DNA of 46,014 bases from an uncultured Thermotogae bacterium. GTDB taxonomy: Bacteria > Bipolaricaulota > Bipolaricaulia > UBA7950 > UBA9294. Where the stretch lies: positions 1 through 46,014 of the forward strand of contig CAZOUO010000004.1 of assembly GCA_964582975.1 (NCBI GenBank). The letters are read 5' to 3'. A program made the position numbers and the translations under genes. The notes under the pieces were generated by a model that did no database searches, was not told the origin of the DNA, and was given only the letters and a program-made list of their open reading frames with translations. Below, piece by piece: positions 2,221 through 13,465 of this stretch (the stretch's first letter is position 1; the number at the start of each line of letters is the position of its first letter).

Positions 2221-2267
2221 AGCGAACCTTTGGCCACGGTGAAGTGTATCAATTACAGGAGGATGCC

Positions 2268-4412
2268 ATGAGGTGGAAGCGTATGCAGGGATTGACCGGT
2301 GCGGGGATAATCCTAGTGCTCTTGGCGGTGCAAGCAATTGGCGGCGCTAGGAATGCCTCCGCTTTCATCCCTCGAGATGAGATTCATCCTCGCTTGGAGA
2401 CGGTCCTTCAGGCCCTTGCACGCACGGCACAAGTTGGTCCGGCCGCGTTGGCTGATTTTGCTCGGGGCAGGGGAATCCCTTTGACTGATGAGACGGTTCG
2501 GGTGGTTATTGAGCCGGTTTCTGGAGCCGTATCCGCTATTGACCGCGCAGCGGTTGCAGCGTTGGGTGGGGTAATTGAAGCAAGCTCTGAAAGTTTGATG
2601 CGGGTGCGAGTTCCGGTTGGCCGACTAGAGCAGGTTGCTGATCGCGTTGAGGGGATCGTGTTCATCCGCTTGCCCTACCAACCACGGCCTTTGGTGACGA
2701 GCCAGGGAGTAGAGCTCACAGGAGCGTCCGATTTCCATGGCGCTGGCTACTACGGGCAGAACACCAGGGTGGCAGTCATCGATTTGGGGTTCATTGGCCT
2801 CACCGCGGCGCAGAATGCCGGTGAGCTCGACAACGTGGTCTACACGCACGACTTTGGGTCCGGCGGGGTAGAGAGTTATACGTCTCATGGGACCGCTGTC
2901 GCGGAAATCGTGGCCGACATGGCCCCTCAGGCCTCCCTTTACCTCATGAAGGTCGATGATGAAGTCGATCTGCAAAACGCTGTCACTTACTGCGTTAACA
3001 ACGGAATCGACATCGTCAATCACTCCGTTGGGTGGTACAACACCAACTACTACGACGGCACCGGTACAGTAGCAGGGGCTGCCAATACTGCTCGTGATAA
3101 TGGAATCCTGTGGGTGAACGCAGCGGGAAACGACGCCGACGGTGTCGCTGGGTATACCGGTCACTGGCAGGGTGCTTTTGCCGATGGCGATGGAGACAAC
3201 TGGCACGACTTCGCGGCCGGAGATGAGAGGAACAGCTTCTATCTTGCCTTGGGAGAGACCGTTGATATCTACATGACATGGGATGATTGGGAATTCAGCG
3301 CCCAAGATTATGACCTATATCTCTACGATCCGGGTGGAGGCGAAGTCGACTGGTCTGAAAATGTGCAGGACGGGTCTCAGCATCCCACAGAATGGATTGA
3401 GTACACTACGACGACCAGTGGGTACCATTCCTTCGCCATCTATCGTTGGAATGCCCCGGCGAGCCCAGAAATTGAGGTCTTCTTGTGGAACAACACTGGC
3501 ACGGCGCTTGGGCTTGAACACAACGTCTACGAAAGCAGCATCGTCACCCCTGGCAACTCATCTAAGGTCATGGCTGTCGGAGCGATTCACCGTGGCAATT
3601 GGACGACCGGTCCCCAGGAGACGTACAGCTCTCAAGGGCCGTCCAATGCGAGCAAGTACGCTTCAAGCCGGATCAAACCGGATATCATGGGCCCAGACAG
3701 TGTGTCCAATTACACCTACGGCGGATTTGCGGGCACCTCAGCCTCTTCACCCCATGTCGCGGGAGCGGCGGCGTTGCTGCTTTCCGAGGACCCGACAAGG
3801 ACGGCCGACCAACTCCGAACAAAGCTGGAGGCAGACGCCATTGATATGGGAACTTCGGGCAAAGACAACATCTATGGATCGGGCCGGCTGAATATGCAGC
3901 TCGTGTCCTCTGGAACAGAGGCGGTCTTTCGCGTCGACAAAGTAGGCAATGTCTACGCCGATGGCTCTTTCTACGGTGCCGGCTTCTACACCGGCTCGGC
4001 CGATGTCGCCGAATGGGTCCCCGTGAACGAGGAGGTGGAACCCGGCGATGTCCTGGAGCTCGATCCCGATAATCCGGGCCACTACCGAAAGACGTGCAGT
4101 CCCTGTTCCACGCTTGTGGGGGGCGTGGTCTCGACAGACCCCGGCATTGTCCTTGGATTGCCGTCCGAGACTCCCGACTCAGGACTCCCGACTCAAGATA
4201 TGGCCCTTCTTGCGCTGCTCGGCATCGTACCCGTGAAGGTGACCGACGAGGGTGGACCGATCGAGCCGGGGGATCTATTGGTTACGTCTGGCACTCCAGG
4301 CCATGCTATGCGTTGGGATCCAGAGAATAAAGGCATCTGTGATTTTGTCGGCAAGGCCTTGGGTCCCCTACAAGAAGGCACGGGAACGATTCGCGCCCTG
4401 TTGATGCGATAA
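2268..4412 (+). CDS. Secreted S8 subtilisin-like serine protease with shared C-terminal ADVAE domain
   Basis: VAVIDLGF (Asp), SHGTAVA (His), FAGTSASSPHVAG (Ser); signal peptide; GGAGG before ATG 2268. Confidence 0.92.
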   Translation: MRWKRMQGLTGAGIILVLLAVQAIGGARNASAFIPRDEIHPRLETVLQALARTAQVGPAALADFARGRGIPLTDETVRVVIEPVSGAVSAIDRAAVAALGGVIEASSESLMRVRVPVGRLEQVADRVEGIVFIRLPYQPRPLVTSQGVELTGASDFHGAGYYGQNTRVAVIDLGFIGLTAAQNAGELDNVVYTHDFGSGGVESYTSHGTAVAEIVADMAPQASLYLMKVDDEVDLQNAVTYCVNNGIDIVNHSVGWYNTNYYDGTGTVAGAANTARDNGILWVNAAGNDADGVAGYTGHWQGAFADGDGDNWHDFAAGDERNSFYLALGETVDIYMTWDDWEFSAQDYDLYLYDPGGGEVDWSENVQDGSQHPTEWIEYTTTTSGYHSFAIYRWNAPASPEIEVFLWNNTGTALGLEHNVYESSIVTPGNSSKVMAVGAIHRGNWTTGPQETYSSQGPSNASKYASSRIKPDIMGPDSVSNYTYGGFAGTSASSPHVAGAAALLLSEDPTRTADQLRTKLEADAIDMGTSGKDNIYGSGRLNMQLVSSGTEAVFRVDKVGNVYADGSFYGAGFYTGSADVAEWVPVNEEVEPGDVLELDPDNPGHYRKTCSPCSTLVGGVVSTDPGIVLGLPSETPDSGLPTQDMALLALLGIVPVKVTDEGGPIEPGDLLVTSGTPGHAMRWDPENKGICDFVGKALGPLQEGTGTIRALLMR
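3921..4409 (+). repeat. Shared C-terminal domain, copy 2
   Basis: Near-identical to 1732-2217 apart from the variable loop and the last ~40 codons. Confidence 0.9.
4165..4199 (+). repeat. Degenerate heptamer array (5 units) inside coding sequence
   Basis: ccgagac tcccgac tcaggac tcccgac tcaagat, at the same position in the domain as 1973-2007. Confidence 0.75.
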
Positions 4413-4573: not shown

Positions 4574-5443
4574 ATGGAGGAAAAAGAGGATAAAGCGGCA
4601 TTGCGAGAGCTTGAGCTCCTCGAGGCGCTGGCCGAGAATCCAGAAGCCCGGCAGGTGGATCTCGCCACGCGCCTCGGGGTAGCCGTGGGAACAGTTAACT
4701 GGCTGCTCAAGCGCCTATCAACGAAAGGATATGTCAAAATCAAGCGAATCGGACGCTGGCAATGGCGGTACCTCCTCACCCCCCGGGGCTTTGCGGAGAA
4801 ATCGCGGCTGACCCAGCGGTATCTTAAGAACTCCATGACCCTCTACCGAAAGACGCGCCAGGAGGCCCGCCGGCTCCTGGGTGCTTTACGGGAGAGCGGG
4901 TATAACCAGGTGTGCCTGGAAGGCGATCCGGAGAACGATCTGCTGGACGTCTGCCGCCTGACGTGTCTTGAACAGGAGATAGCGATCGCTAAGGCTGGAA
5001 ACCCTTTAGCCGATGGGGAAGTGCCAACATTACGGGTGGTAGGGCAGGAGCTAACACTCGCAGGGCCGCAAGGAAAGCCACCATCCAGACAGGGAGAGCA
5101 AGGACGGAAAATCGATCAGCGGCTTTCTGAGGTCATCGAGCGAATTGTCGAGGTTGCCCAGCCGGAGAAGATCATTCTCTTCGGTTCTGCGGCGCGTGGG
5201 AAAATGGGGCGAAACAGCGATTTGGATCTGCTGGTCGTAAAGTCTGGAGACTACCATAAGGGTCGCCTGACTGGCGAGATCTATATGCATCTAATCGGGG
5301 TGGGCCAGGCCGTCGATGTGGTTCTCGTGACTCCAGAGGATGTCGACCGATATCGAAACTCGCATCCTCTCGTAATAAAACCCGCTCTGCAGGAGGGGAA
5401 GGTCGTCTATGAACGCGAGCCCGAAACGATATCCGCCGGATGA
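4574..5443 (+). CDS. MarR-like (EPS-associated) winged-helix regulator fused to a minimal nucleotidyltransferase (MNT) domain
   Basis: N-terminal ARQVDLATRLGVAVGTVNWLLKRL..YLLTPRGFAEK; C-terminal IILFGSAARG..SDLDLLVV (GS-x10-DxD). Confidence 0.85.
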   Translation: MEEKEDKAALRELELLEALAENPEARQVDLATRLGVAVGTVNWLLKRLSTKGYVKIKRIGRWQWRYLLTPRGFAEKSRLTQRYLKNSMTLYRKTRQEARRLLGALRESGYNQVCLEGDPENDLLDVCRLTCLEQEIAIAKAGNPLADGEVPTLRVVGQELTLAGPQGKPPSRQGEQGRKIDQRLSEVIERIVEVAQPEKIILFGSAARGKMGRNSDLDLLVVKSGDYHKGRLTGEIYMHLIGVGQAVDVVLVTPEDVDRYRNSHPLVIKPALQEGKVVYEREPETISAG

Positions 5444-5816
5444 CCCCCGGGAGTGGCTGAACCGGGCACGGAGCAACTTGTTGCTGGCAGAGAGCGAGAA
5501 AGGGGATGTGTATCTGGAAGATCTCTGTTTTCATGCGCAGCAAGCTGCCGAAAAGGCGGTCAAGGCATTGCTGATTCATCGGGAAGTGGAGTATCCCTAT
5601 GCCCATGATCTTGCAGAGCTCTTGACCCTTCTACAGCTGGCTGGACTGGACCTTCCCGAATCGGTTAGGAAAGCCTCGAAACTCACACGTTTTGCCATTG
5701 TAACCCGTTACCCTGGCACCCAGGGGCCGGTCGCGCAGGAAGAGTATGAAGAAGCAATATCCGCTGCTGAAGAAGTGGTGCAATGGGTAGAAAGACAAGT
5801 GGGCAGTGAAGCGTAA
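5409..5816 (+). CDS. HEPN domain protein (partner of the MNT domain)
   Basis: CFHAQQAAEKAVKA, HDL and TRYP motifs; overlaps the MNT gene end. Confidence 0.88.
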   Translation: MNASPKRYPPDDPREWLNRARSNLLLAESEKGDVYLEDLCFHAQQAAEKAVKALLIHREVEYPYAHDLAELLTLLQLAGLDLPESVRKASKLTRFAIVTRYPGTQGPVAQEEYEEAISAAEEVVQWVERQVGSEA

Positions 5817-6308: not shown

Positions 6309-6767
6309 GCGCTAGAGCAAAGCTGAGAGGCTTTGCTTCTTAGGTGCTGAGGGAGAGGACAAAAGACTGAGAAGATGTTGTTGGCATGTTTGTCAAAGTT
6401 ATTGAAATGAAAGACATGATATTTAAAAATTGTTTGTCATTGGGATGAATGCTACTTGGTAAGATTTGTTCAGCTTAAGGGTGGTATTGTGGCTTGTGTA
6501 CCGCGGCTAAGGAGGTTGCTAGATCAATCTTAGGATTCACTCGCTATTTGAAAGAGACGTTCCTCACTATCTTATGTGGATAGCTAACCGCAGTCAATCC
6601 TCTCTCGGCGTATGGGAGCTGACATTGGTAGTTTGGCTCGCTTGAGATGAGCAATTCCAGAATTTGCTTTTCCTTCCTTTATGGAAGTAGCAAGGGGGGG
6701 TGAGGAACTAACTTTTTCGGGAAGGTAGGTAGGCTTGGACGGAAATTTATCTAGAAGTGAAGGAGAT

Positions 6768-8078
6768 ATGGACAATCTTCTCAGTAAGATAAAGGCCGAG
6801 AAGGCAAAAATTGCTGTTATCGGCCTGGGCTATGTTGGTCTCCCTCTGGCGGTGGAGAAGGCCAAGGCCGGATTCCAGGTCGTGGGCATCGAGCGCAAGA
6901 AAGAGCGGGTCGATAAGGTCAATCGGGGAGAGAATTACATCCCCGATGTCCTTGATATCGAGTTGAAGGAGGTAGTCCAGAAGAAGCGGCTCTGGGCCAC
7001 CCAGAGCTTCGAGGTGGTCAAAGACGTCGATATCGTGACCATCTGCGTGCCCACCCCCTTAGACAAGAACAAGAATCCAGATACGAGTTACATCCAATAC
7101 GTGGTGGAGCAATCACTGCCCTACCTCCATCCTGGCCAGTTGATGGTTCTGGAGAGCACTACCTATCCCGGCACCACCGAGGAGATTATCCTCCCTCGGA
7201 TCGTCAGTCGAGGGTTCAAGGTCGGTGAAGATTTCTACCTGGCTTTCTCCCCGGAGCGGGTCGATCCCGGAAATAAGAAATACAAGGTGGCTAACACCCC
7301 CAAGGTGGTGGGCGGAGTCAGCCGTGAGTGTACTGAGGTGGCTAAAGCGTTATACGAACAGGTCGTTAAGGGAGGGATCCACACGGTCACCTCACCTAAG
7401 GTTGCGGAGATGGGAAAGCTCTTTGAGAATGTCTTCCGCATTGTCAACATCTCGTTGGTGGACGAGCTGGCGATGCTCTGTGAGCGGATGGGGATCGACG
7501 TCTGGGAAGTCATTGATGCCGCCAAGACGAAGCCCTTCGGGTTCATGCCTTTCTATCCAGGTCCCGGTCTAGGCGGACACTGCATCCCGTTGGATCCCTT
7601 CTATCTCTCCTGGAAGGCCAAGGAGTATGGTTTCCCCACCAGGTTCGTCGAGCTTGCCGGTGAGATCAACGATAAAATGCCGAGATACGTGGCCGAGAGG
7701 GTGTTGGAACTCTTGAATGAGCAGGGGAAGCCTCTGAAGGGTTCCCGCCTCCTGATGCTAGGGATGGCCTACAAGCGTGACGTGGACGATCTCCGGGAGT
7801 CCCCGGCGATCAAGGTGGCAAGGCTACTCCAAGAGCGAGGAGCTGAGCTTTCATACCATGATCCTTATGTTCCCATAGTTGAGATCAATGGTTTGGAATA
7901 TCGCTCGGTCAACCTCGCTCCTGAAATCCTTGAGAAGAGTGATCTAGTCCTGATAACCACGGACCATTCCAACGTGGACTATTCTGCGGTCGTAGAGCAT
8001 GCAGGGCTAATCTATGACACTAGAAACGCGTTAAAAGACTACAATTCTGATAAGATTTATAAGTTGGGGGCGTCATGA
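6768..8078 (+). CDS. UDP-N-acetylhexosamine 6-dehydrogenase (WbpA/WbpO/WecC-like)
   Basis: GLGYVG, ICVPTP, ESTTYPGTTEE, FSPERVDPGN, GGHCIP, YKRDVDDLRESP; AGGAG before ATG 6768. Confidence 0.92.
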   Translation: MDNLLSKIKAEKAKIAVIGLGYVGLPLAVEKAKAGFQVVGIERKKERVDKVNRGENYIPDVLDIELKEVVQKKRLWATQSFEVVKDVDIVTICVPTPLDKNKNPDTSYIQYVVEQSLPYLHPGQLMVLESTTYPGTTEEIILPRIVSRGFKVGEDFYLAFSPERVDPGNKKYKVANTPKVVGGVSRECTEVAKALYEQVVKGGIHTVTSPKVAEMGKLFENVFRIVNISLVDELAMLCERMGIDVWEVIDAAKTKPFGFMPFYPGPGLGGHCIPLDPFYLSWKAKEYGFPTRFVELAGEINDKMPRYVAERVLELLNEQGKPLKGSRLLMLGMAYKRDVDDLRESPAIKVARLLQERGAELSYHDPYVPIVEINGLEYRSVNLAPEILEKSDLVLITTDHSNVDYSAVVEHAGLIYDTRNALKDYNSDKIYKLGAS

Positions 8079-9070
8079 GGGTAGCGATCGTCGGCGCGGG
8101 AAACTGGGGGAAGCATCTGTTAAGGAATTTCTGCGAGCTCCTGGGCGAAGAGGATGTCATTGTGAGCGACATTGATGAGAAAAGGCTTAAGGAAGCGAAA
8201 GCCCAGCATGTGGGTATCGTCGTTACCCAGGACTTCGATAACTTGCTCATGGATAGAAGAATTGATGCCGTGGTCATTGCAACTCCTGTGGTGACCCACT
8301 TCGAGCTGGCTAAGAAGGCTCTAGAGGCAGGGAAGCACGTCCTGGTGGAGAAGCCGATCTCCTTGGATATCGATGAAGCCATGGAGCTAGTCAAGTTGGC
8401 AAGAAGAACCGGTAGAACACTAATGGTAGACCATCTCCTGGAATACCATCCGGTGGTGGAGGAGATGAAGCGGCGGATCGACTCTGGGGAGTTCGGGGAG
8501 ATCTATTATCTCTACTGCCAGCGGCTCAACCTGGGAGTCATAAGGACAGAAGAGAATGCCCTGTGGAGCGTTGGGCCGCACGATATCTCTGTAATATTGT
8601 ACTTGCTCGGCAAAGAGCCGATACGCGTATCCGCTCACGGAGGTGTCTATCTGCAAAAAGAGGAGGGCATTGACGATGTGGTCTTCTTGAACTTGGAGTT
8701 CAATAACGGAGTGCGGGCTCACTCCCACCTAAGTTGGCTTAATCCTTGCAAGATAAGAAAGATCACGGTGATAGGTAGCGAAAAGATGATGGTCTTTGAT
8801 GATCTGGCCCCGGAGAAGCTAAAAATCTTCGATAGGAGGGCGGAACGAGTGGAAGGAGGTTTTCAGCTTCATGCCGGAGGGACCTATGCGATTGAGTTTA
8901 ACTTAGAGGAAGAGCCCCTGAAGCGCATGGCCACGCACTTCCTGGAATCCATCAAGGATAACACTGCTCCAAGGAGCGACGGCCGAGATGGGCTACAGGT
9001 TTTGCAGGTGCTGGCCGCAGCCCAGAGATCCTTGGAGAAGGGCGGGAGGACCGTCGAGCCGGAGAGCTAA
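8075..9070 (+). CDS. Gfo/Idh/MocA oxidoreductase (WbpB-like 3-dehydrogenase)
   Basis: GAGNWG, IATP..H, GKHVLVEKP; ATGA overlap with the upstream gene. Confidence 0.88.
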   Translation: MRVAIVGAGNWGKHLLRNFCELLGEEDVIVSDIDEKRLKEAKAQHVGIVVTQDFDNLLMDRRIDAVVIATPVVTHFELAKKALEAGKHVLVEKPISLDIDEAMELVKLARRTGRTLMVDHLLEYHPVVEEMKRRIDSGEFGEIYYLYCQRLNLGVIRTEENALWSVGPHDISVILYLLGKEPIRVSAHGGVYLQKEEGIDDVVFLNLEFNNGVRAHSHLSWLNPCKIRKITVIGSEKMMVFDDLAPEKLKIFDRRAERVEGGFQLHAGGTYAIEFNLEEEPLKRMATHFLESIKDNTAPRSDGRDGLQVLQVLAAAQRSLEKGGRTVEPES

Positions 9071-9664
9071 ATGGCAGATAATGATTACTTCGTTCACGAA
9101 TCGGCATATGTCGATGAGCCAGTCAAGATAGGCAAGGGCACCAAGATCTGGCACTTTTCCCACGTCATGCACAGCGTGCGAATCGGGCGAAACTGCATGC
9201 TGGGACAGAATGTACTCGTTGGTCCGAACGTGACAATTGGCAACAACGTGAAGATTCAAAACAACGTCTCCGTCTACGAGGGCGTCACCCTCGAAGACGA
9301 TGTCTTCTGCGGGCCCTCGATGGTCTTCACTAACGTCGATATGCCTAGATCAGCTTATCCCCGGGAGCATAGTGAGTATCTGGAGACCGTGGTCAAGTGC
9401 GGGGCAACGATCGGGGCCAATGCTACGATCATCTGTGGCCATACCATCGGGGCTCATGCCTTCATCGGCGCTGGGGCAGTCGTGGCCAAAGATATCCCCG
9501 ACTATGCCCTGGTCTACGGCAATCCGGCCAGGATCAGGGGCTGGGTCTGCGAATGCGGAGCCCCGCTGGCGTTCAGCCGAGGTCGGGCCACTTGTGAAGC
9601 GTGCGGTAGAGGGTATCGGAAGAGAGGCGAGAAGGTGGAGCCGACTGGAGTTCGCAGTGCGTAG
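9071..9664 (+). CDS. wbpD: Hexapeptide-repeat N-acetyltransferase (WbpD/WlbB-like)
   Basis: KIWHFSHV, KIQNNVSVYEGV, FCGPSMVFTN, GNPARIRGWVCECG. Confidence 0.9.
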   Translation: MADNDYFVHESAYVDEPVKIGKGTKIWHFSHVMHSVRIGRNCMLGQNVLVGPNVTIGNNVKIQNNVSVYEGVTLEDDVFCGPSMVFTNVDMPRSAYPREHSEYLETVVKCGATIGANATIICGHTIGAHAFIGAGAVVAKDIPDYALVYGNPARIRGWVCECGAPLAFSRGRATCEACGRGYRKRGEKVEPTGVRSA

Positions 9665-9680
9665 TGCGCAGTTCGCAGTT
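9650..9680 (+). repeat. Heptamer array GTKCGYA x4 (left arm)
   Basis: gttcgca gtgcgta gtgcgca gttcgca gtt; reverse complement of the array at 10150-10177. Confidence 0.85.
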
Positions 9681-9728
9681 GACGGAGAGAACCCCAGAGG
9701 CCGCGGAACCGTCTGGTGAGAGGGGCTT

Positions 9729-10097
9729 ATGAAGATTGAGCGATTCGAGGACATCGAAGCTTGGAAGGCAGCCCGAGTTCTCGGTTCGCAAGTATATGAG
9801 TTGGGTCGTAAGTCCGGGTTGAGGAGGGACTTCGGGTTGCGCGATCAGGTTCAGCGAGCCGCCGTCTCCATCATGGCCAATATAGCTGAAGGATTCGACT
9901 CCCGCTCGAATCAGGAATTCCTCCGCTTCCTTGGCTATGCCTATCGGTCGGCGACCGAGCTGCAATCCCACTTGTACGTGGCCGTGGATCAGTCGTACGT
10001 GGACCAAGAGGGATTCGACAAGCTATATCAACAGACAGCGAAGGTTCACAAGCTTCTTAACGGATTCATACGTTATCTGAAGGAAGGCAGGGAATGA
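9729..10097 (+). CDS. Four helix bundle protein (TIGR02436 / 23S rRNA IVP, Avd-like fold)
   Basis: FEDIEAW..A, LRDQVQRAAVSIMANIAEG, EFLRFL..A..S..E signature. Confidence 0.92.
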   Translation: MKIERFEDIEAWKAARVLGSQVYELGRKSGLRRDFGLRDQVQRAAVSIMANIAEGFDSRSNQEFLRFLGYAYRSATELQSHLYVAVDQSYVDQEGFDKLYQQTAKVHKLLNGFIRYLKEGRE

Positions 10098-10149
10098 AGC
10101 TGCGAGCTGGAACGGAGATTCGGCATCGACAATCCGGAAATCAAATGAC

Positions 10150-10177
10150 CGCGAACTGCGAACCACGAACAGCGAAC
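10150..10177 (+). repeat. Heptamer array NRCGAAC x4 (right arm)
   Basis: cgcgaac tgcgaac cacgaac agcgaac. Confidence 0.88.
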
Positions 10178-10191
10178 CAAAGGGAGAAGAC

Positions 10192-11421
10192 ATGAAGATT
10201 CCGACGCTCGATCTCGTCCGCCAGTACGAGTCGATTCGCGAAGAGATGGACGATGCGATCCTCGAGGTCGTGCGTTCGGGCAAGTTCGTGCTCGGCCCGT
10301 TCGTTCGGGCGTTTGAGGAGGCCGCCGCCGAATATTGCGGTGTGAGGCACGCCATCGGCGTCGCTAGCGGCACCGACGCCCTCCTTCTCTCACTGAAGGC
10401 GCTGGGGATTGGCTCCGGGGACGGCGTCATCATTCCCAGCTTCACCTTCTTCGCCACCGCCGGCGTCGTTTACAACATTGGGGGCACGCCCGTCTTCGCT
10501 GACATCGACCCCAAGACTTTCAACCTCGATCCCGAAGATGTCAGAAGGATTCTGACTGCGCACCATGAACTACGAACTGCGAACCATAAACCACTCACCG
10601 AAATCAAAGCCATCATCCCCGTTCACCTGTACGGTCAAATGGCCGACATGGACGAGATCACGGCAATCGCGCAGGAGTACGATCTTGCCGTCATCGAAGA
10701 CGCTGCCCAAGCCATCGGCGCGACGTATTCCAGTAAGATGGGAGGCAACCGCGAAGCACAAGCTTCCGGTCACAAACCGCGAACCGCGAACCGCGAACCG
10801 GTTATCAAAGCTGGCACTATTGGCCGTCTTGGCTGCTTCAGCTTCTACCCCACCAAGAACCTGGGCGCTTACGGTGACGGCGGGATGGTAATCACCAACG
10901 ATGACGAGCTGGCCGAGCGGATGAGGCTTCTCCGAGTCCATGGCTCGAAGCCAAAGTATTATCACCACATCGTTGGAGCGAACAGTAGGCTGGATGCCCT
11001 TCAGGCGGCCATCCTGAGAGCGAAGCTGCCTCATCTCGATCAGTGGTCTCAGGCCCGGCGGGAGAGGGCCGCTTATTACGACCAGCTCCTCAATGACGTA
11101 GAGGGAATTGAGACTCCCTATGTGGCTTCTGACCGGACTCATATCTACCATCAGTACACTATCCGGGTAAAGGACGGCAGGAGGGACAAGCTCCGGGTAT
11201 ATCTCAAGGAGCGGGGCATTGGGACGGAGGTTTACTACCCTTTGCCATTGCATCTACAGGAATGCTTTAGCGATTTGGGATATCACGAGGGAGACCTTCG
11301 GGAATCGGAGTGGGCGAGTCGGGAAGTATTGTCGCTTCCGGTTTTTCCCGAACTCAAAGAAAAGGAGCTGGCTTACGTGATTAAGCATGTGCAAGCTTTC
11401 AGTAGTAAGTCCGATAGTTAA
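10192..11421 (+). CDS. DegT/DnrJ/EryC1/StrS aminotransferase (WbpE-like) with two repeat-derived loop insertions
   Basis: SGTDAL, PVHLYGQ, IEDAAQA, SFYPTKNLGAYGDGG, NSRLDALQAA. Confidence 0.93.
   Translation: MKIPTLDLVRQYESIREEMDDAILEVVRSGKFVLGPFVRAFEEAAAEYCGVRHAIGVASGTDALLLSLKALGIGSGDGVIIPSFTFFATAGVVYNIGGTPVFADIDPKTFNLDPEDVRRILTAHHELRTANHKPLTEIKAIIPVHLYGQMADMDEITAIAQEYDLAVIEDAAQAIGATYSSKMGGNREAQASGHKPRTANREPVIKAGTIGRLGCFSFYPTKNLGAYGDGGMVITNDDELAERMRLLRVHGSKPKYYHHIVGANSRLDALQAAILRAKLPHLDQWSQARRERAAYYDQLLNDVEGIETPYVASDRTHIYHQYTIRVKDGRRDKLRVYLKERGIGTEVYYPLPLHLQECFSDLGYHEGDLRESEWASREVLSLPVFPELKEKELAYVIKHVQAFSSKSDS
10557..10598 (+). repeat. In-frame heptamer array (6 units, 42 nt) in the aminotransferase
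   Basis: tgcgcac catgaac tacgaac tgcgaac cataaac cactcac. Confidence 0.85.
10743..10798 (+). repeat. Second heptamer array in the aminotransferase
   Basis: aggcaac cgcgaag cacaagc ttccggt cacaaac cgcgaac cgcgaac cgcgaac (last four units are clear). Confidence 0.8.
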
Positions 11422-11782
11422 TTCCATGGGCTTATGGAAATTATAGATTTTACTTAATCTTAATAATATTTCCATAGATGACGAATGATCACGAGCCAGG
11501 GGCCCGGGATTGCGCTTCAAGGGTGGACGGGTCAAGTGAGCAATATCATGAGTGTCCCCAGAGACTTTGATACGAGCATCCGATGACAACTCATCGGGCC
11601 GGAATCCTGTCTAATTCGATCATGAGAAGTCTATTTGTGTCCGTTCCTGACGTGGTTATTCAGAAAGGCGACCAACTTGTCCCGAGAGGTGAGAGTAGTT
11701 GCTGGTTTGGATCTGAAAAACTAGTACAGCTCTAGAATGACAGATAAGAAATAGAAGACGAAGACATACGGAGGTGTACAAG

Positions 11783-13465
11783 ATGAAACGTTGGCTGGTA
11801 GGCTGGAAGCTTTGGAGTGCTCTGAGTGGGATCATCATAGCTGCGGTCTTAATTCCGGTGCTCGCAAGTAGTACGGAGAAAGACATGACTCTCACCAGCT
11901 TTGCAGACGTGATTCGCTTTGAGGCCGAGGGGATTGCGAGTCTGCGGGTTTGTATCTTCGACCTTTCCGGACGCGAATTATGGAGCTCTGGAGTTGTCTC
12001 AAGCAAAATCGTTGATTGGAACAGGACTAACGAGTGGGGGGAACGTTTGGCATACGGAGCATATTTGTATGTCGCAGATGGCTGGAGTGCAGATGGAGTT
12101 CTTGTCCTCCAGAAGAAGGGAAAGCTTGTGCTTTTCCCTGGCGGTCGCTTTCAGCACCCAGTTGCGCCACCAGTTGCTCCACCTGGTGGGGAAGAAGATA
12201 GTCCCCCTTCATCTGGAGATGGAGATGCACCTTTCAGACCCATGGCCCAAATTGGAACACTTAGTGACACGGGTATCTTTGGCCAAGTGGGAATTGGTAC
12301 GACGAGTCCGGTACAGATGTTTGATGTGGCGGGTAAGGTTGTAATTGATGGGATTAATGGACGTCTTGGGATAGGGACTACCACACCAGAATATGACTTG
12401 AAAGTGGTGGGGGCGAATGCGGGACTTTACTTAGAGAGAACTGACGGGATTCACGAGGCATTCATTCTTATGAGAAGCAACTCTGGAGGAGGTCAATTAA
12501 GAGGCCTTTTGAACGGTGGTATTAGGTTTATGGATTGGCAGGCAGCTAGGGAGTGGGTGAGAATTGATAATTCTGGCAACGTTGGCATTGGTACGTTAAG
12601 TCCGGTACAGATGTTAGATGTGGCGGGTAAGGTTGTAATTGATGGGATTAATGGACGTCTTGGGATAGGGACTACCACACCAGAATATGACTTGAAAGTG
12701 GTGGGGGCGAATGCGGGACTTTACTTAGAGAGAACTGACGGGATTCACGAGGCATTCATTCTTATGAAGGGCACCTCTGGGGGAGGTCAGTTAAGAGGCT
12801 TATTAGACGGTGGTATTAGGTTTATGAATTGGCAAGCGAGCAGAGAGTGGGTGAGAATTGATAATTCTGGGAACGTTGGCATCGGTACTACCACCCCGAG
12901 CGCGAGCTTGGAGGTTCACGGCTCTACAAGCAATCTGCTTGCACTCTATGATCCTGTTGCTCCTGCAGACCCCAAGTTTAGGGTGACCAAAACCGGCGAA
13001 GTCCGTGCCGATGGCTCTTACTACGGAGCTGGAGGTGTTTACTCAGGTGGAGCAGACGTTGCCGAACGTATCAATGCCAGCGAATGGGTAGAGATGGGTA
13101 ACGTTGTGGAGATCGATCCCGACCATCCGGGCTTCTTCCGGAAGGCGCGCTCTCCATATAGCACCAAAGTGGCAGGGATCATATCAACTTCACCAGGAGT
13201 TGTTTTAGGGAATAGCTTTGACTCAGCCACAGACAAGTGGGCGGACAACCGACCAATGATAGCCATTGCCGGCCGAGTACCAGTGAGAGTAGTCACAGAG
13301 AATGGGCCTATAAGATTAGGAGATCTTCTAGTCAGTTCATCTCAGTCTGGATATGCAATGCGATGTGGTGTGAAAAGTACATATGTAGGCGCAGTGATCG
13401 GCAAAGCTCTGGAACCATTGACCGAGGAAAGTGGGACTATTATGGTTCAGGTAATGTTGCGTTAA
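11783..13465 (+). CDS. Secreted fibre-like protein: signal peptide, FlgD/T9SS-like Ig domain, Pro linker, GNVGIGTTxP repeats, C-terminal ADVAE domain
   Basis: IFDLSGREL..W....G..LAYGAYLY; five GIGT repeats; GGADVAE..GRVPVRV..GDLLVSS..IGKALE; GGAGG before ATG 11783. Confidence 0.8.
   Translation: MKRWLVGWKLWSALSGIIIAAVLIPVLASSTEKDMTLTSFADVIRFEAEGIASLRVCIFDLSGRELWSSGVVSSKIVDWNRTNEWGERLAYGAYLYVADGWSADGVLVLQKKGKLVLFPGGRFQHPVAPPVAPPGGEEDSPPSSGDGDAPFRPMAQIGTLSDTGIFGQVGIGTTSPVQMFDVAGKVVIDGINGRLGIGTTTPEYDLKVVGANAGLYLERTDGIHEAFILMRSNSGGGQLRGLLNGGIRFMDWQAAREWVRIDNSGNVGIGTLSPVQMLDVAGKVVIDGINGRLGIGTTTPEYDLKVVGANAGLYLERTDGIHEAFILMKGTSGGGQLRGLLDGGIRFMNWQASREWVRIDNSGNVGIGTTTPSASLEVHGSTSNLLALYDPVAPADPKFRVTKTGEVRADGSYYGAGGVYSGGADVAERINASEWVEMGNVVEIDPDHPGFFRKARSPYSTKVAGIISTSPGVVLGNSFDSATDKWADNRPMIAIAGRVPVRVVTENGPIRLGDLLVSSSQSGYAMRCGVKSTYVGAVIGKALEPLTEESGTIMVQVMLR
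12305..12892 (+). repeat. In-frame tandem duplication, 294 bp (98 aa) x2
   Basis: 12305-12598 vs 12599-12892; first ~169 bp differ at one position by eye. Confidence 0.92.

Follow-up and report, generated by a model that had tools for sequence, protein, structure and literature searches.

A PF05635 gene enclosed by inverted heptamer arrays as a candidate mobile cassette with gene-less arrays of the same type

We analysed a 46,014-nucleotide stretch of DNA (the window) from an uncultured Thermotogae bacterium, placed in Bipolaricaulota by the GTDB lineage (assembly GCA_964582975.1, contig CAZOUO010000004.1). In it, a gene of the PF05635 four-helix-bundle family stands between two genes of a sugar-nucleotide operon and is enclosed by two inverted arrays of 7-nt units. 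We find that inverted flanking arrays are a property of the PF05635 gene family, that the type of array is inherited with the protein, and that arrays of the resident type also occur without a gene, in neighbouring coding DNA and in genomes that carry such genes. Our preferred reading, to which we give a probability of about one in two, is that the unit at 9649–10179 is a mobile cassette of the kind known from 23S rRNA intervening sequences (IVSs), whose arrays are candidate type-specific cis sites that would be read by a multimer and would spread as gene-less copies, the arms also pairing in RNA.

The gene, its flanking arrays and the junction they occupy

The inverted arrays around the PF05635 gene exceed chance. 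The left (upstream) arm (9649–9680), recovered by Tandem Repeats Finder and by an inverted-repeat search, contains 4.6 units (AGTTCGC/GTKCGYA) with the core GTNC towards the gene. The right (downstream) arm (10148–10179) consists of four NNCGAAC units (CGCGAAC, TGCGAAC, CACGAAC and AGCGAAC), in which CGAAC is constant and the first two positions vary (CG, TG, CA and AG); the corresponding Tandem Repeats Finder call is 10151–10177, with 3.9 copies of the unit GCGAACA at period 7. As inverted arms, 9650–9679 and 10148–10177 (30 nt) are 83% complementary and separated by 468 nt, in agreement with a preliminary description of this DNA, made from the sequence alone, which had read the bracketing arrays as reverse complements. 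The predicted RNA duplex of the two arms (−37.3 kcal/mol) was not attained by any of 1,817 window pairs of the same geometry taken from the window (mean −16.8, s.d. 5.0, minimum −36.9). Period-7 arrays with at least 3.5 copies number five in the 2.9-Mb assembly, all on the window contig. When phased at 7 nt and repeated at least three times, GAAC forms three arrays in the 2.9 Mb, all at 10153–10798, and every GAAC array of the genome falls within 1.15 kb, against a background of 0.25 per 4-mer per strand for period-7 4-mer arrays of at least three repeats.

The left arm is separated from the ATG by a spacer (9681–9728, + strand) that carries the Shine–Dalgarno-like stretch GAGAGGGG; across homologues, the distance from arm to start codon has a median of 36 nt. 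Immediately 3′ of the right arm, AAAGGGAGAAGAC (10180–10191, + strand) provides the Shine–Dalgarno sequence of the downstream aminotransferase gene. According to the open reading frame (ORF) list and Pfam, neither the unit, including the interval between its arms, nor the DNA beside it contains a transposase gene, and comparison of filled with empty sites revealed no target-site duplication or flanking direct repeat at the borders, so that both absences reported in the preliminary description stand. Two arm-like units (GTTCTCG GTTCGCA) also lie at 9777–9790, within the 5′ part of the PF05635 gene, and are 86% complementary to the right arm.

The gene itself (9729–10097, + strand) is an intact ORF of 122 amino acids that matches PF05635 (E = 6e-32; 110.5 bits, cut-off 33.8) and TIGR02436 (108.4 bits, cut-off 24), PF05635 being the sole match in a Pfam scan of this ORF. 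All six residues that are invariant in 24 relatives (S47, N51, E54, G55, S74 and E77) are kept. AlphaFold2 predicts four helices (pLDDT 96.3), and Foldseek aligned the model with XCC0516 (2gsc; TM-score 0.87) and BT_0352 (2rld; 0.78), two solved relatives with five chains per entry whose sequences match as well (E = 3.4e-11 and 4.8e-7). Avd, a protein of diversity-generating retroelements (DGRs), was a more distant match (4dwl; TM-score 0.75, sequence identity 12%). Within the DGR ribonucleoprotein, Avd is a pentamer. PMC10053308 places Avd in the same Pfam family as the cassette protein. The S23p-family protein is described as a homopentameric toroid in PMC4990558, according to which the function of the PF05635 family was still not known in 2016, more than two decades after its description. 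The family name in Pfam, PMC4990558 and the TM-scores for 2gsc (0.87) and 4dwl (0.75) thus bear out the earlier assignment to the 23S rRNA IVS family with an Avd-like fold.

The cassette is a discrete insertion at a former 4-nt overlap of stop and start codons. It lies between a WbpD-like hexapeptide acetyltransferase gene (9071–9664, + strand; Pfam Hexapep, 4.8e-23) and a WbpE-like DegT aminotransferase gene (10192–11421, + strand; Pfam DegT, 2.4e-124), labels that denote likeness alone, as neither ORF attains an NCBIfam equivalog cut-off. The preliminary description had the gene splitting this wbpD–wbpE junction and had predicted empty sites in relatives; ORF 9729–10097 occupies that position, and empty junctions, in which the two host genes overlap by 4 nt, are present in G011 (same family, 91% complete) and G037 (same class, 94% complete), neither of which has a PF05635 match. 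(We refer to the window's own genome as G000, to related genomes by other G numbers and to individual loci by L numbers.) At filled junctions, in the window and in five other listed genomes, a PF05635 gene with arms fills a gap of 479–543 nt; counted by adjacency to this aminotransferase gene, the PF05635 gene occurs in eight genomes, including G005 and G014. The upstream array forms the 3′ end of the acetyltransferase gene, supplying its final five codons (V R S A after G) and the TAG stop, as the preliminary description had noted, and at every filled site shown the right arm is followed by a Shine–Dalgarno-like stretch and then the aminotransferase start codon. The cassette therefore inserts without harm: it provides the preceding gene with a stop and the following one with a ribosome-binding site. 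Of the minimal mobile unit proposed earlier, the discrete inserted unit is supported by the empty junctions of G011 and G037, whereas neither a target-site duplication nor a recombinase motif was seen.

Cassette proteins at this junction are 31–70% identical to that of the window, compared with 64–71% for the neighbouring aminotransferases, and the arm cores found at this one site differ between genomes (CGAAC, CGGAC/GGACTAC, CCAC and CCTAC). That the cassette proteins are less alike than the aminotransferases beside them suggests either repeated filling and refilling of the junction or a cassette gene that evolves much faster. The empty junction of G011 (L037, G011:C228) reads GGAGGTTCGAAGTGAAGG and includes a single GTTCGAA, which, read by eye, resembles the start of the window's left arm at about 10 of 11 nt; it could reflect a target preference, an array seed or chance. 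Derivation of the array unit from the target site was considered and rejected, as the junction is also occupied by cassettes with other cores and the resemblance comes from one genome (n = 1, G011).

Array types across the family and arrays without a gene

We surveyed the 150-nt flanks of the best 80 of at least 492 relatives in named genome records, a set obtained with a single protein as query and therefore biased to its clade. These relatives span many phyla, and the closest listed are metagenome-assembled genomes (MAGs) of Acetothermia/Bipolaricaulota (64–68% identity). As the preliminary description had anticipated, strong inverted arrays recur beside homologues: an ungapped inverted match score of at least 14 was reached by 35 of the 80 flank pairs and by 0 of 242 equally spaced control window pairs from the same loci. 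Tandem periodicity scores of at least 12 were obtained for 32/80 upstream and 34/80 downstream flanks (controls, 10/242 and 8/242), with periods of 7 (46 arrays), 8 (14), 9 (4) and 6 (2). Array density was 2.2 per kb within the gene ±200 nt and 0.39 per kb in the rest of the loci. Among 41 related genomes, 26 had PF05635 matches, and inverted arrays stood beside the gene in most of the 30 loci from them. At a looser threshold, 99 cassettes included 62 with an upstream and 61 with a downstream array, two of the counted ‘arrays’ being runs of N; the arms had a median length of 5.1 and 4.7 units and a mode of 4–5. Inverted flanking arrays are a property of the PF05635 gene family.

The 8-nt unit GATTGAGT represents the array type of a different clade. 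In locus L013 (G029:C40), a cassette with 8-nt units (AGTTGGAA/CTTTTGAA) begins a few bases after the 3′ end of an apparent tRNA gene (…GGTTCAAATCCCACCCCCTCCGCCA). Many cassettes (L002, L005, L007, L010, L016, L017 and L027) lie on contigs of about 1.8–2.7 kb or near contig ends, which suggests that arrays break short-read assemblies and that cassettes and arrays are possibly under-counted in MAGs.

Arms that are kept for pairing in mRNA should show mismatches biased towards G·U and variable positions that mirror each other. Neither was found. Arm positions in the 69 clear-armed loci comprised 1,916 Watson–Crick pairs, 94 G·U, 126 A·C and 234 others, without an excess of G·U among the mismatches, and when the units of one arm were permuted, mirrored unit order was detected at the 5% level in 0 of 36 loci (median share of equal-or-better permutations, 0.8). 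Taken together, these results indicate that the complementarity of the arms comes from their common core and not from maintained base pairs. In 48 of 72 period-7 arms just one or two positions vary. The core in labelled loci (n = 77) was GAAC in 17, GGAC in 13 and GCAC in 7, so that 37 of the 77 are of a G-N-A-C type, which agrees with the earlier remark that units keep a 7-nt phase and end in AC. Mapped on the protein tree, the core changes 16 times (shuffled mean 33, minimum 28) and the period 7 times (shuffled mean 12.6, minimum 10). Array type, defined by a core of 4–5 nt, by spacers that are free to vary and by the period (7, 8 or 9), is inherited with the protein.

The preliminary description had also raised the possibility that the arrays pair in mRNA and loop the gene out, to be examined by folding. 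The minimum free energy (MFE) and centroid folds of the cassette region do pair the two arms, and the energy predicted for their duplex is −37.3 kcal/mol. The ability to pair thus held up; signs that pairing has been maintained, in the form of a G·U excess (94 against 126 A·C) or mirrored order (0/36), did not appear. Unit decay along the arms was weak, with 0.86 identity to the consensus for the outer two units and 0.80 for the inner two (p = 0.026), and its slope was positive in 24 arms and negative in 31; we do not use this gradient as evidence. Likewise set aside was an apparent polarity relative to the gene, with G-rich 5′ and C-rich 3′ arms (48:10 and 45:11): the property is identical on both strands of an inverted repeat and merely restates the GTNC core.

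Arrays of the same type, beyond the two recorded in the preliminary description, lie in the adjoining aminotransferase gene, which, compared with solved enzymes and with empty-junction relatives, carries two inserts. The insert residues missing from its PDB alignment are 124–136 (site A) and 186–205 (site B), and the AlphaFold2 model has pLDDT below 50, and hence disorder, at residues 183–201 of site B. Site A (10560–10600, + strand, in frame) is a solo array of the GAAC type, oriented as the right arm (GCACCAT GAACTAC GAACTGC GAACCAT AAACCAC TCACC), and encodes HELRTANHKP. Site B (10752–10800, + strand, in frame) begins with relic units of another type (GCACAAG … TCACAAA), which resemble the CCACAAG arrays of relatives, and continues into an AACCGCG (CGCGAAC) array; it encodes …GHKPRTANREP. 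This second array (10775–10800) is perfect, with 3.7 copies and 100% matches in Tandem Repeats Finder, and has the type and orientation of the right arm.

The same two sites of the aminotransferase gene hold in-frame, gene-less inverted pairs (GTGG-type followed by CCAC-type) in G005, G014, G017 and G022. In G005 (L009), an in-frame array with a 9-nt period is identical in register to the right arm of the genome's own cassette at 37 of 46 positions, and in G017 (L020) a GAAC array is nested within older CCAC arrays. Where the resident cassette differs in type, arrays of the resident type sit beside or inside older arrays. A further array of the resident type was present within 3 kb at 13 of 55 loci, compared with a mean of 1.0 (maximum 6) when types were permuted among loci. 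In G006, a second aminotransferase copy (L039, G006:C40) lies in another operon, without a cassette, and keeps both GGAC arrays; it has 87.5% DNA identity to the cassette-side copy.

At the scale of genomes, we took 20 contigs from each genome and counted, in the first 20 kb of every contig, the period-7/8 arrays with at least 3.5 copies. Four relatives without a PF05635 match had 2 arrays in 1.40 Mb, whereas three with 6–7 matches had 44 in 1.02 Mb. G000, with one PF05635 gene, has 6 period-7/8 arrays in 2.9 Mb, five of them in the window; its gene-less copies are local only. In G007, the 8-nt unit of one divergent resident cassette recurs in 16 of 22 gene-less arrays, and 0 of 22 match G009 units; in G009, 6 of 18 match the genome's own cassette units and 2 of 18 those of G007. 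The cassette units in this comparison were read by eye from Tandem Repeats Finder output, and the list for G009 is incomplete. Two of the 24 arrays sampled in G007 flank a divergent PF05635 gene just under the E-value threshold. These results fit the earlier suggestion that the repeats spread in connection with the gene, with arrays of the resident type near the gene (13/55 loci) and arrays across gene-carrying genomes (44 versus 2). The preliminary description had held that arrays equally frequent away from such genes would count against it. In the array-rich relatives most arrays are indeed remote, whereas their types match the resident cassette and genomes without the gene are nearly free of arrays.

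Two further in-frame period-7 arrays of the window have a GAC core: 1977–2008 (GACTCTG GACATTG GACCTTC GACTTTG) and 4169–4195 (GACTCCC GACTCAG GACTCCC GACTCA). Both lie in the same loop of a C-terminal domain common to a papain-type peptidase with a lectin-like domain (175–2220) and a subtilase (2244–4412). The aligned C-terminal stretch of the two peptidases is 88% identical overall, and within the array conservation is confined to the phased GAC cores. Cassette L027 in G001, a genome of the same genus, has CTGGACT arms similar to this unit; no matching cassette was found in G000.

Known systems, the proposed explanation and its rivals

The cassette is closest in design to the ORF-bearing IVSs of 23S rRNA (Coxiella burnetii and Leptospira), in which a PF05635/S23p gene likewise lies within stem-forming terminal inverted repeats over about 430–530 nt. 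The Coxiella burnetii S23p IVS has a 28-bp terminal stem that is cut by RNase III in vitro, carries 3–4 tandem heptamers (GACAGAT) beside the S23p ORF in strain-variable number, and is regarded as selfish and horizontally moving, its mobility being a matter of speculation (PMC4990558). Unlike these IVSs, the window cassette lies between protein-coding genes of an mRNA operon and not in rRNA helix 25 or 45; both of its arms are whole arrays of short units that match through the core alone, and gene-less copies occur in neighbouring coding DNA. As it stands outside rRNA, the window cassette is not an IVS in the strict sense. A search of the incomplete G000 assembly for large-subunit rRNA found none.

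Other known systems share some of these features. In REPIN/RAYT systems, inverted copies of a repeat stand on either side of a single-copy gene, and the repeat is also scattered over the genome as gene-less singlets and inverted doublets; the RAYT is a Y1 (IS200/IS605-like) transposase and the repetitive extragenic palindromic (REP) repeat a palindrome of 20–40 nt. The present system resembles them in that a window-type gene is flanked by inverted repeats and accompanied by gene-less copies of the same type (16/22 in G007), and in that genomes without a PF05635 gene nearly lack the repeat. It differs in that its protein is a four-helix bundle of 122 amino acids without a known transposase motif and no Y1 transposase, and in that its repeat consists of tandem 7–9-nt units whose copies are tolerated in frame in coding DNA. 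With DGRs it has in common the fold of Avd (TM-score 0.75), which acts in a ribonucleoprotein with the DGR reverse transcriptase (8ub7), but the cassette has neither a neighbouring reverse transcriptase nor a template/variable repeat pair, and its variation is not adenine-specific. In contrast to insertion sequences and miniature inverted-repeat transposable elements, it shows neither a transposase nor a target-site duplication. The trp RNA-binding attenuation protein (TRAP) forms a ring on spaced GAG/UAG triplets. As a working analogy, the cassette protein may be likened to TRAP as a putative ring-shaped homo-oligomer that would read a short repeated core with free spacers, about one repeat per protomer, although its fold is unrelated and its stoichiometry is different.

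The short tandemly repeated repetitive (STRR) sequences of cyanobacteria are heptamer arrays. Like these, and like the GGGAATC and TAACTGA arrays, the window arrays are built of 7-nt units and are dispersed in relatives. The GGGAATC heptamers of Xanthomonas form 70–75 convergent inverted pairs, with arrays within transcripts (PMC4692102), and TAACTGA heptamers occur in Beggiatoaceae, cyanobacteria and Bacteroidetes, for whose patchy distribution PMC4679880 gives no mechanism. The words S23, intervening, 23S and four helix are absent from both papers, which make no link to the PF05635 family; a literature search, to which supplements and subscription journals lay outside reach, returned no described link between the family and heptamers besides the note on Coxiella. 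New here are two pairing tests with a negative outcome, the tracking of array type at a single common junction, the observation that arrays stay local in a genome with one gene, and a genome-level comparison of carriers with non-carriers and of array type with the resident cassette.

We propose that the unit at 9649–10179 is one copy of a widespread, apparently selfish cassette made up of a PF05635 gene and two inverted terminal arrays. The arrays would act as the cis sites of the element and be read unit by unit by a multimer, for which the encoded protein, presumably a ring, is the obvious candidate; with about 4–5 units per arm, one unit might fall to each protomer of a five-chain ring. Binding would probably be to single-stranded nucleic acid, by analogy with the TRAP ring on its spaced triplets. 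A period that is fixed within an array and differs between clades (7, 8 or 9) suits spaced single-strand reading better than double-helix phasing. In the way that RAYTs act on REPINs, the relation between gene and arrays would drive or stabilise the spread of gene-less arrays, and in the transcript the arms may pair into an IVS-like stem, which RNase III may cut. A stronger version can be advanced only tentatively: PF05635 rings would be trans-acting readers and, directly or indirectly, propagators of type-specific 7–9-nt arrays, in a two-part system of autonomous cassettes and gene-less solo arms or hairpins that has no known recombinase, colonises intergenic junctions, rRNA and protein surface loops, and would explain repeats of the STRR, GGGAATC and TAACTGA types.

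Several observations weigh against the proposed cassette with its read and spreading arrays. At the looser threshold, arrays stood on both sides of the gene in only 40 of 99 cassettes, and the total fold energy of 9630–10200 is unremarkable (z = −0.15). Clustering of array types on the protein tree could arise from plain co-inheritance alone. The genome comparison is one among kin, with n = 4 versus 3 and sampled contigs only. Almost all sampled arrays of G007 and G009 are far from any PF05635 gene, so that any action on them would necessarily be in trans. The PF05635 family has no known nuclease or recombinase motif and no target-site duplication was found, which leaves movement of the DNA unexplained, and local copies could come from passive template switching between nearby arrays in which the protein takes no part.

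A purely RNA-level element, as in 23S rRNA, is an alternative explanation: the arms would pair in the operon transcript and RNase III would cut the stem, excising or separating the cassette mRNA, with the 7-nt period as a by-product. The paired arms of the MFE and centroid folds, a duplex (−37.3 kcal/mol) below all 1,817 controls and the RNase III-cut 28-bp stem of the Coxiella IVS with its S23p ORF (PMC4990558) all speak for it. We nevertheless consider it unlikely, though with a chance that has to be reckoned with, as G·U is not above A·C in 69 loci (94 versus 126), mirrored unit order was found in 0 of 36, and the core is kept while spacer positions differ between the arms. In addition, in-frame gene-less inverted pairs persist in the aminotransferase gene of four relatives, where they would be costly if stems were efficiently cut, and neither the solo arrays nor the orphan arrays found across genomes have an arm to pair with. 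If, on the other hand, the arrays were slippage-prone microsatellites copied by replication slippage or template switching, they would be unread and the PF05635 gene a passenger. Such passive dynamics would account for the perfect, young array at 10775–10800 (100% matches), for copy numbers that differ among Coxiella strains (PMC4990558), and for the arm-like copy about 500 nt from its arm in L009, a locality that template switching predicts. They would not account for a core that stays constant while the spacers change, be it within an arm, between the two arms or between paralogues, for a G-N-A-C core common to cassettes of many phyla whose proteins are only about 46–70% identical, for a period and core that track protein clades, for same-family genomes that lack the gene and are nearly free of period-7/8 arrays, or for the enrichment at gene flanks (35/80 versus 0/242); we judge this explanation improbable.

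Two further explanations fare far worse. DGR-like retro-copying, in which an Avd-like protein and a reverse transcriptase acting in trans would copy an arm as template into nearby arrays and so diversify loops of neighbouring proteins, draws on the Avd-like fold (TM-score 0.75 to 4dwl, with DGR ribonucleoprotein entries including 8ub7), on the replacement of older arrays in protein loops by arrays of the resident type, and on an RVT_1 ORF of 606 amino acids in G000 (L124, G000:C79:6237–6929; E = 1.6e-42). That ORF, the only clear RVT_1 match, is on the separate contig C79, and there is none near the cassette; variation affects spacer positions and not adenines, both A of GAAC being constant, and we saw no pair of template and variable repeats that differ specifically at adenines, all of which makes this mechanism highly improbable. 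It is hardly more credible that the protein is a local regulator, binding DNA or RNA to control the polysaccharide operon, with the arrays as operators that the host retains in order to control wbpE. The cassette does lie inside the operon, with array sites before and within the downstream gene, and the junction is occupied in eight genomes. However, cassettes of the same design are found across many phyla in settings unrelated to this one, such as behind an apparent tRNA gene in L013, relatives with an empty junction keep the operon, and the cassettes at this junction carry different array types and belong to divergent clades of the protein.

The PF05635/TIGR02436 family is very large, with at least 492 confirmed relatives and two crystal structures. 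If the gene and its type-specific arrays come packaged together and the arrays also spread alone, the family would have a concrete ligand that can be tested, dispersed heptamer repeats would have a candidate cause, and the origin of short in-frame repeat inserts in enzymes, this aminotransferase among them, would be explained. A large family without known function and an unexplained class of repeats would become one testable problem. The cassette also illustrates how an operon can be entered harmlessly, with its own stop before and a ribosome-binding site after.

Operon, host genome and other features of the window

The 46-kb window is the complete contig C4 of a 2.9-Mb assembly (G000) with 348 contigs and 79% completeness. 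On the basis of the ORF list and comparison with Pfam, NCBIfam and the PDB, the sugar-nucleotide operon spans 6735–11421 and also contains a nucleotide-sugar dehydrogenase gene and a GFO/IDH/MocA oxidoreductase gene; solved relatives of the aminotransferase (10192–11421) include WbpE (PDB 3nu7, E = 4e-80). A scan of 8900–11600 for sigma-70 promoters and terminators gave no signal above shuffled sequence. In three sequencing runs we found one contig identical to the window over 9000–11500 and no empty or variant allele; the only run that contains the stretch is labelled sediment metagenome, and the other matches are short pieces of homologues from other organisms.

Elsewhere in the window, an ORF with a winged helix–turn–helix and a nucleotidyltransferase domain (Polbeta/NTP_transf_2) overlaps a HEPN ORF at 4574–5816, a pair that, judged by its sequence, looks like a toxin–antitoxin-type module of the MNT–HEPN kind. 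A 294-nt tandem duplication (12293–12888; 2.0 copies, 93% matches) lies within ORF 11774–13465, which has no Pfam match and shares its C-terminal domain with the two peptidases encoded at 175–2220 and 2244–4412.

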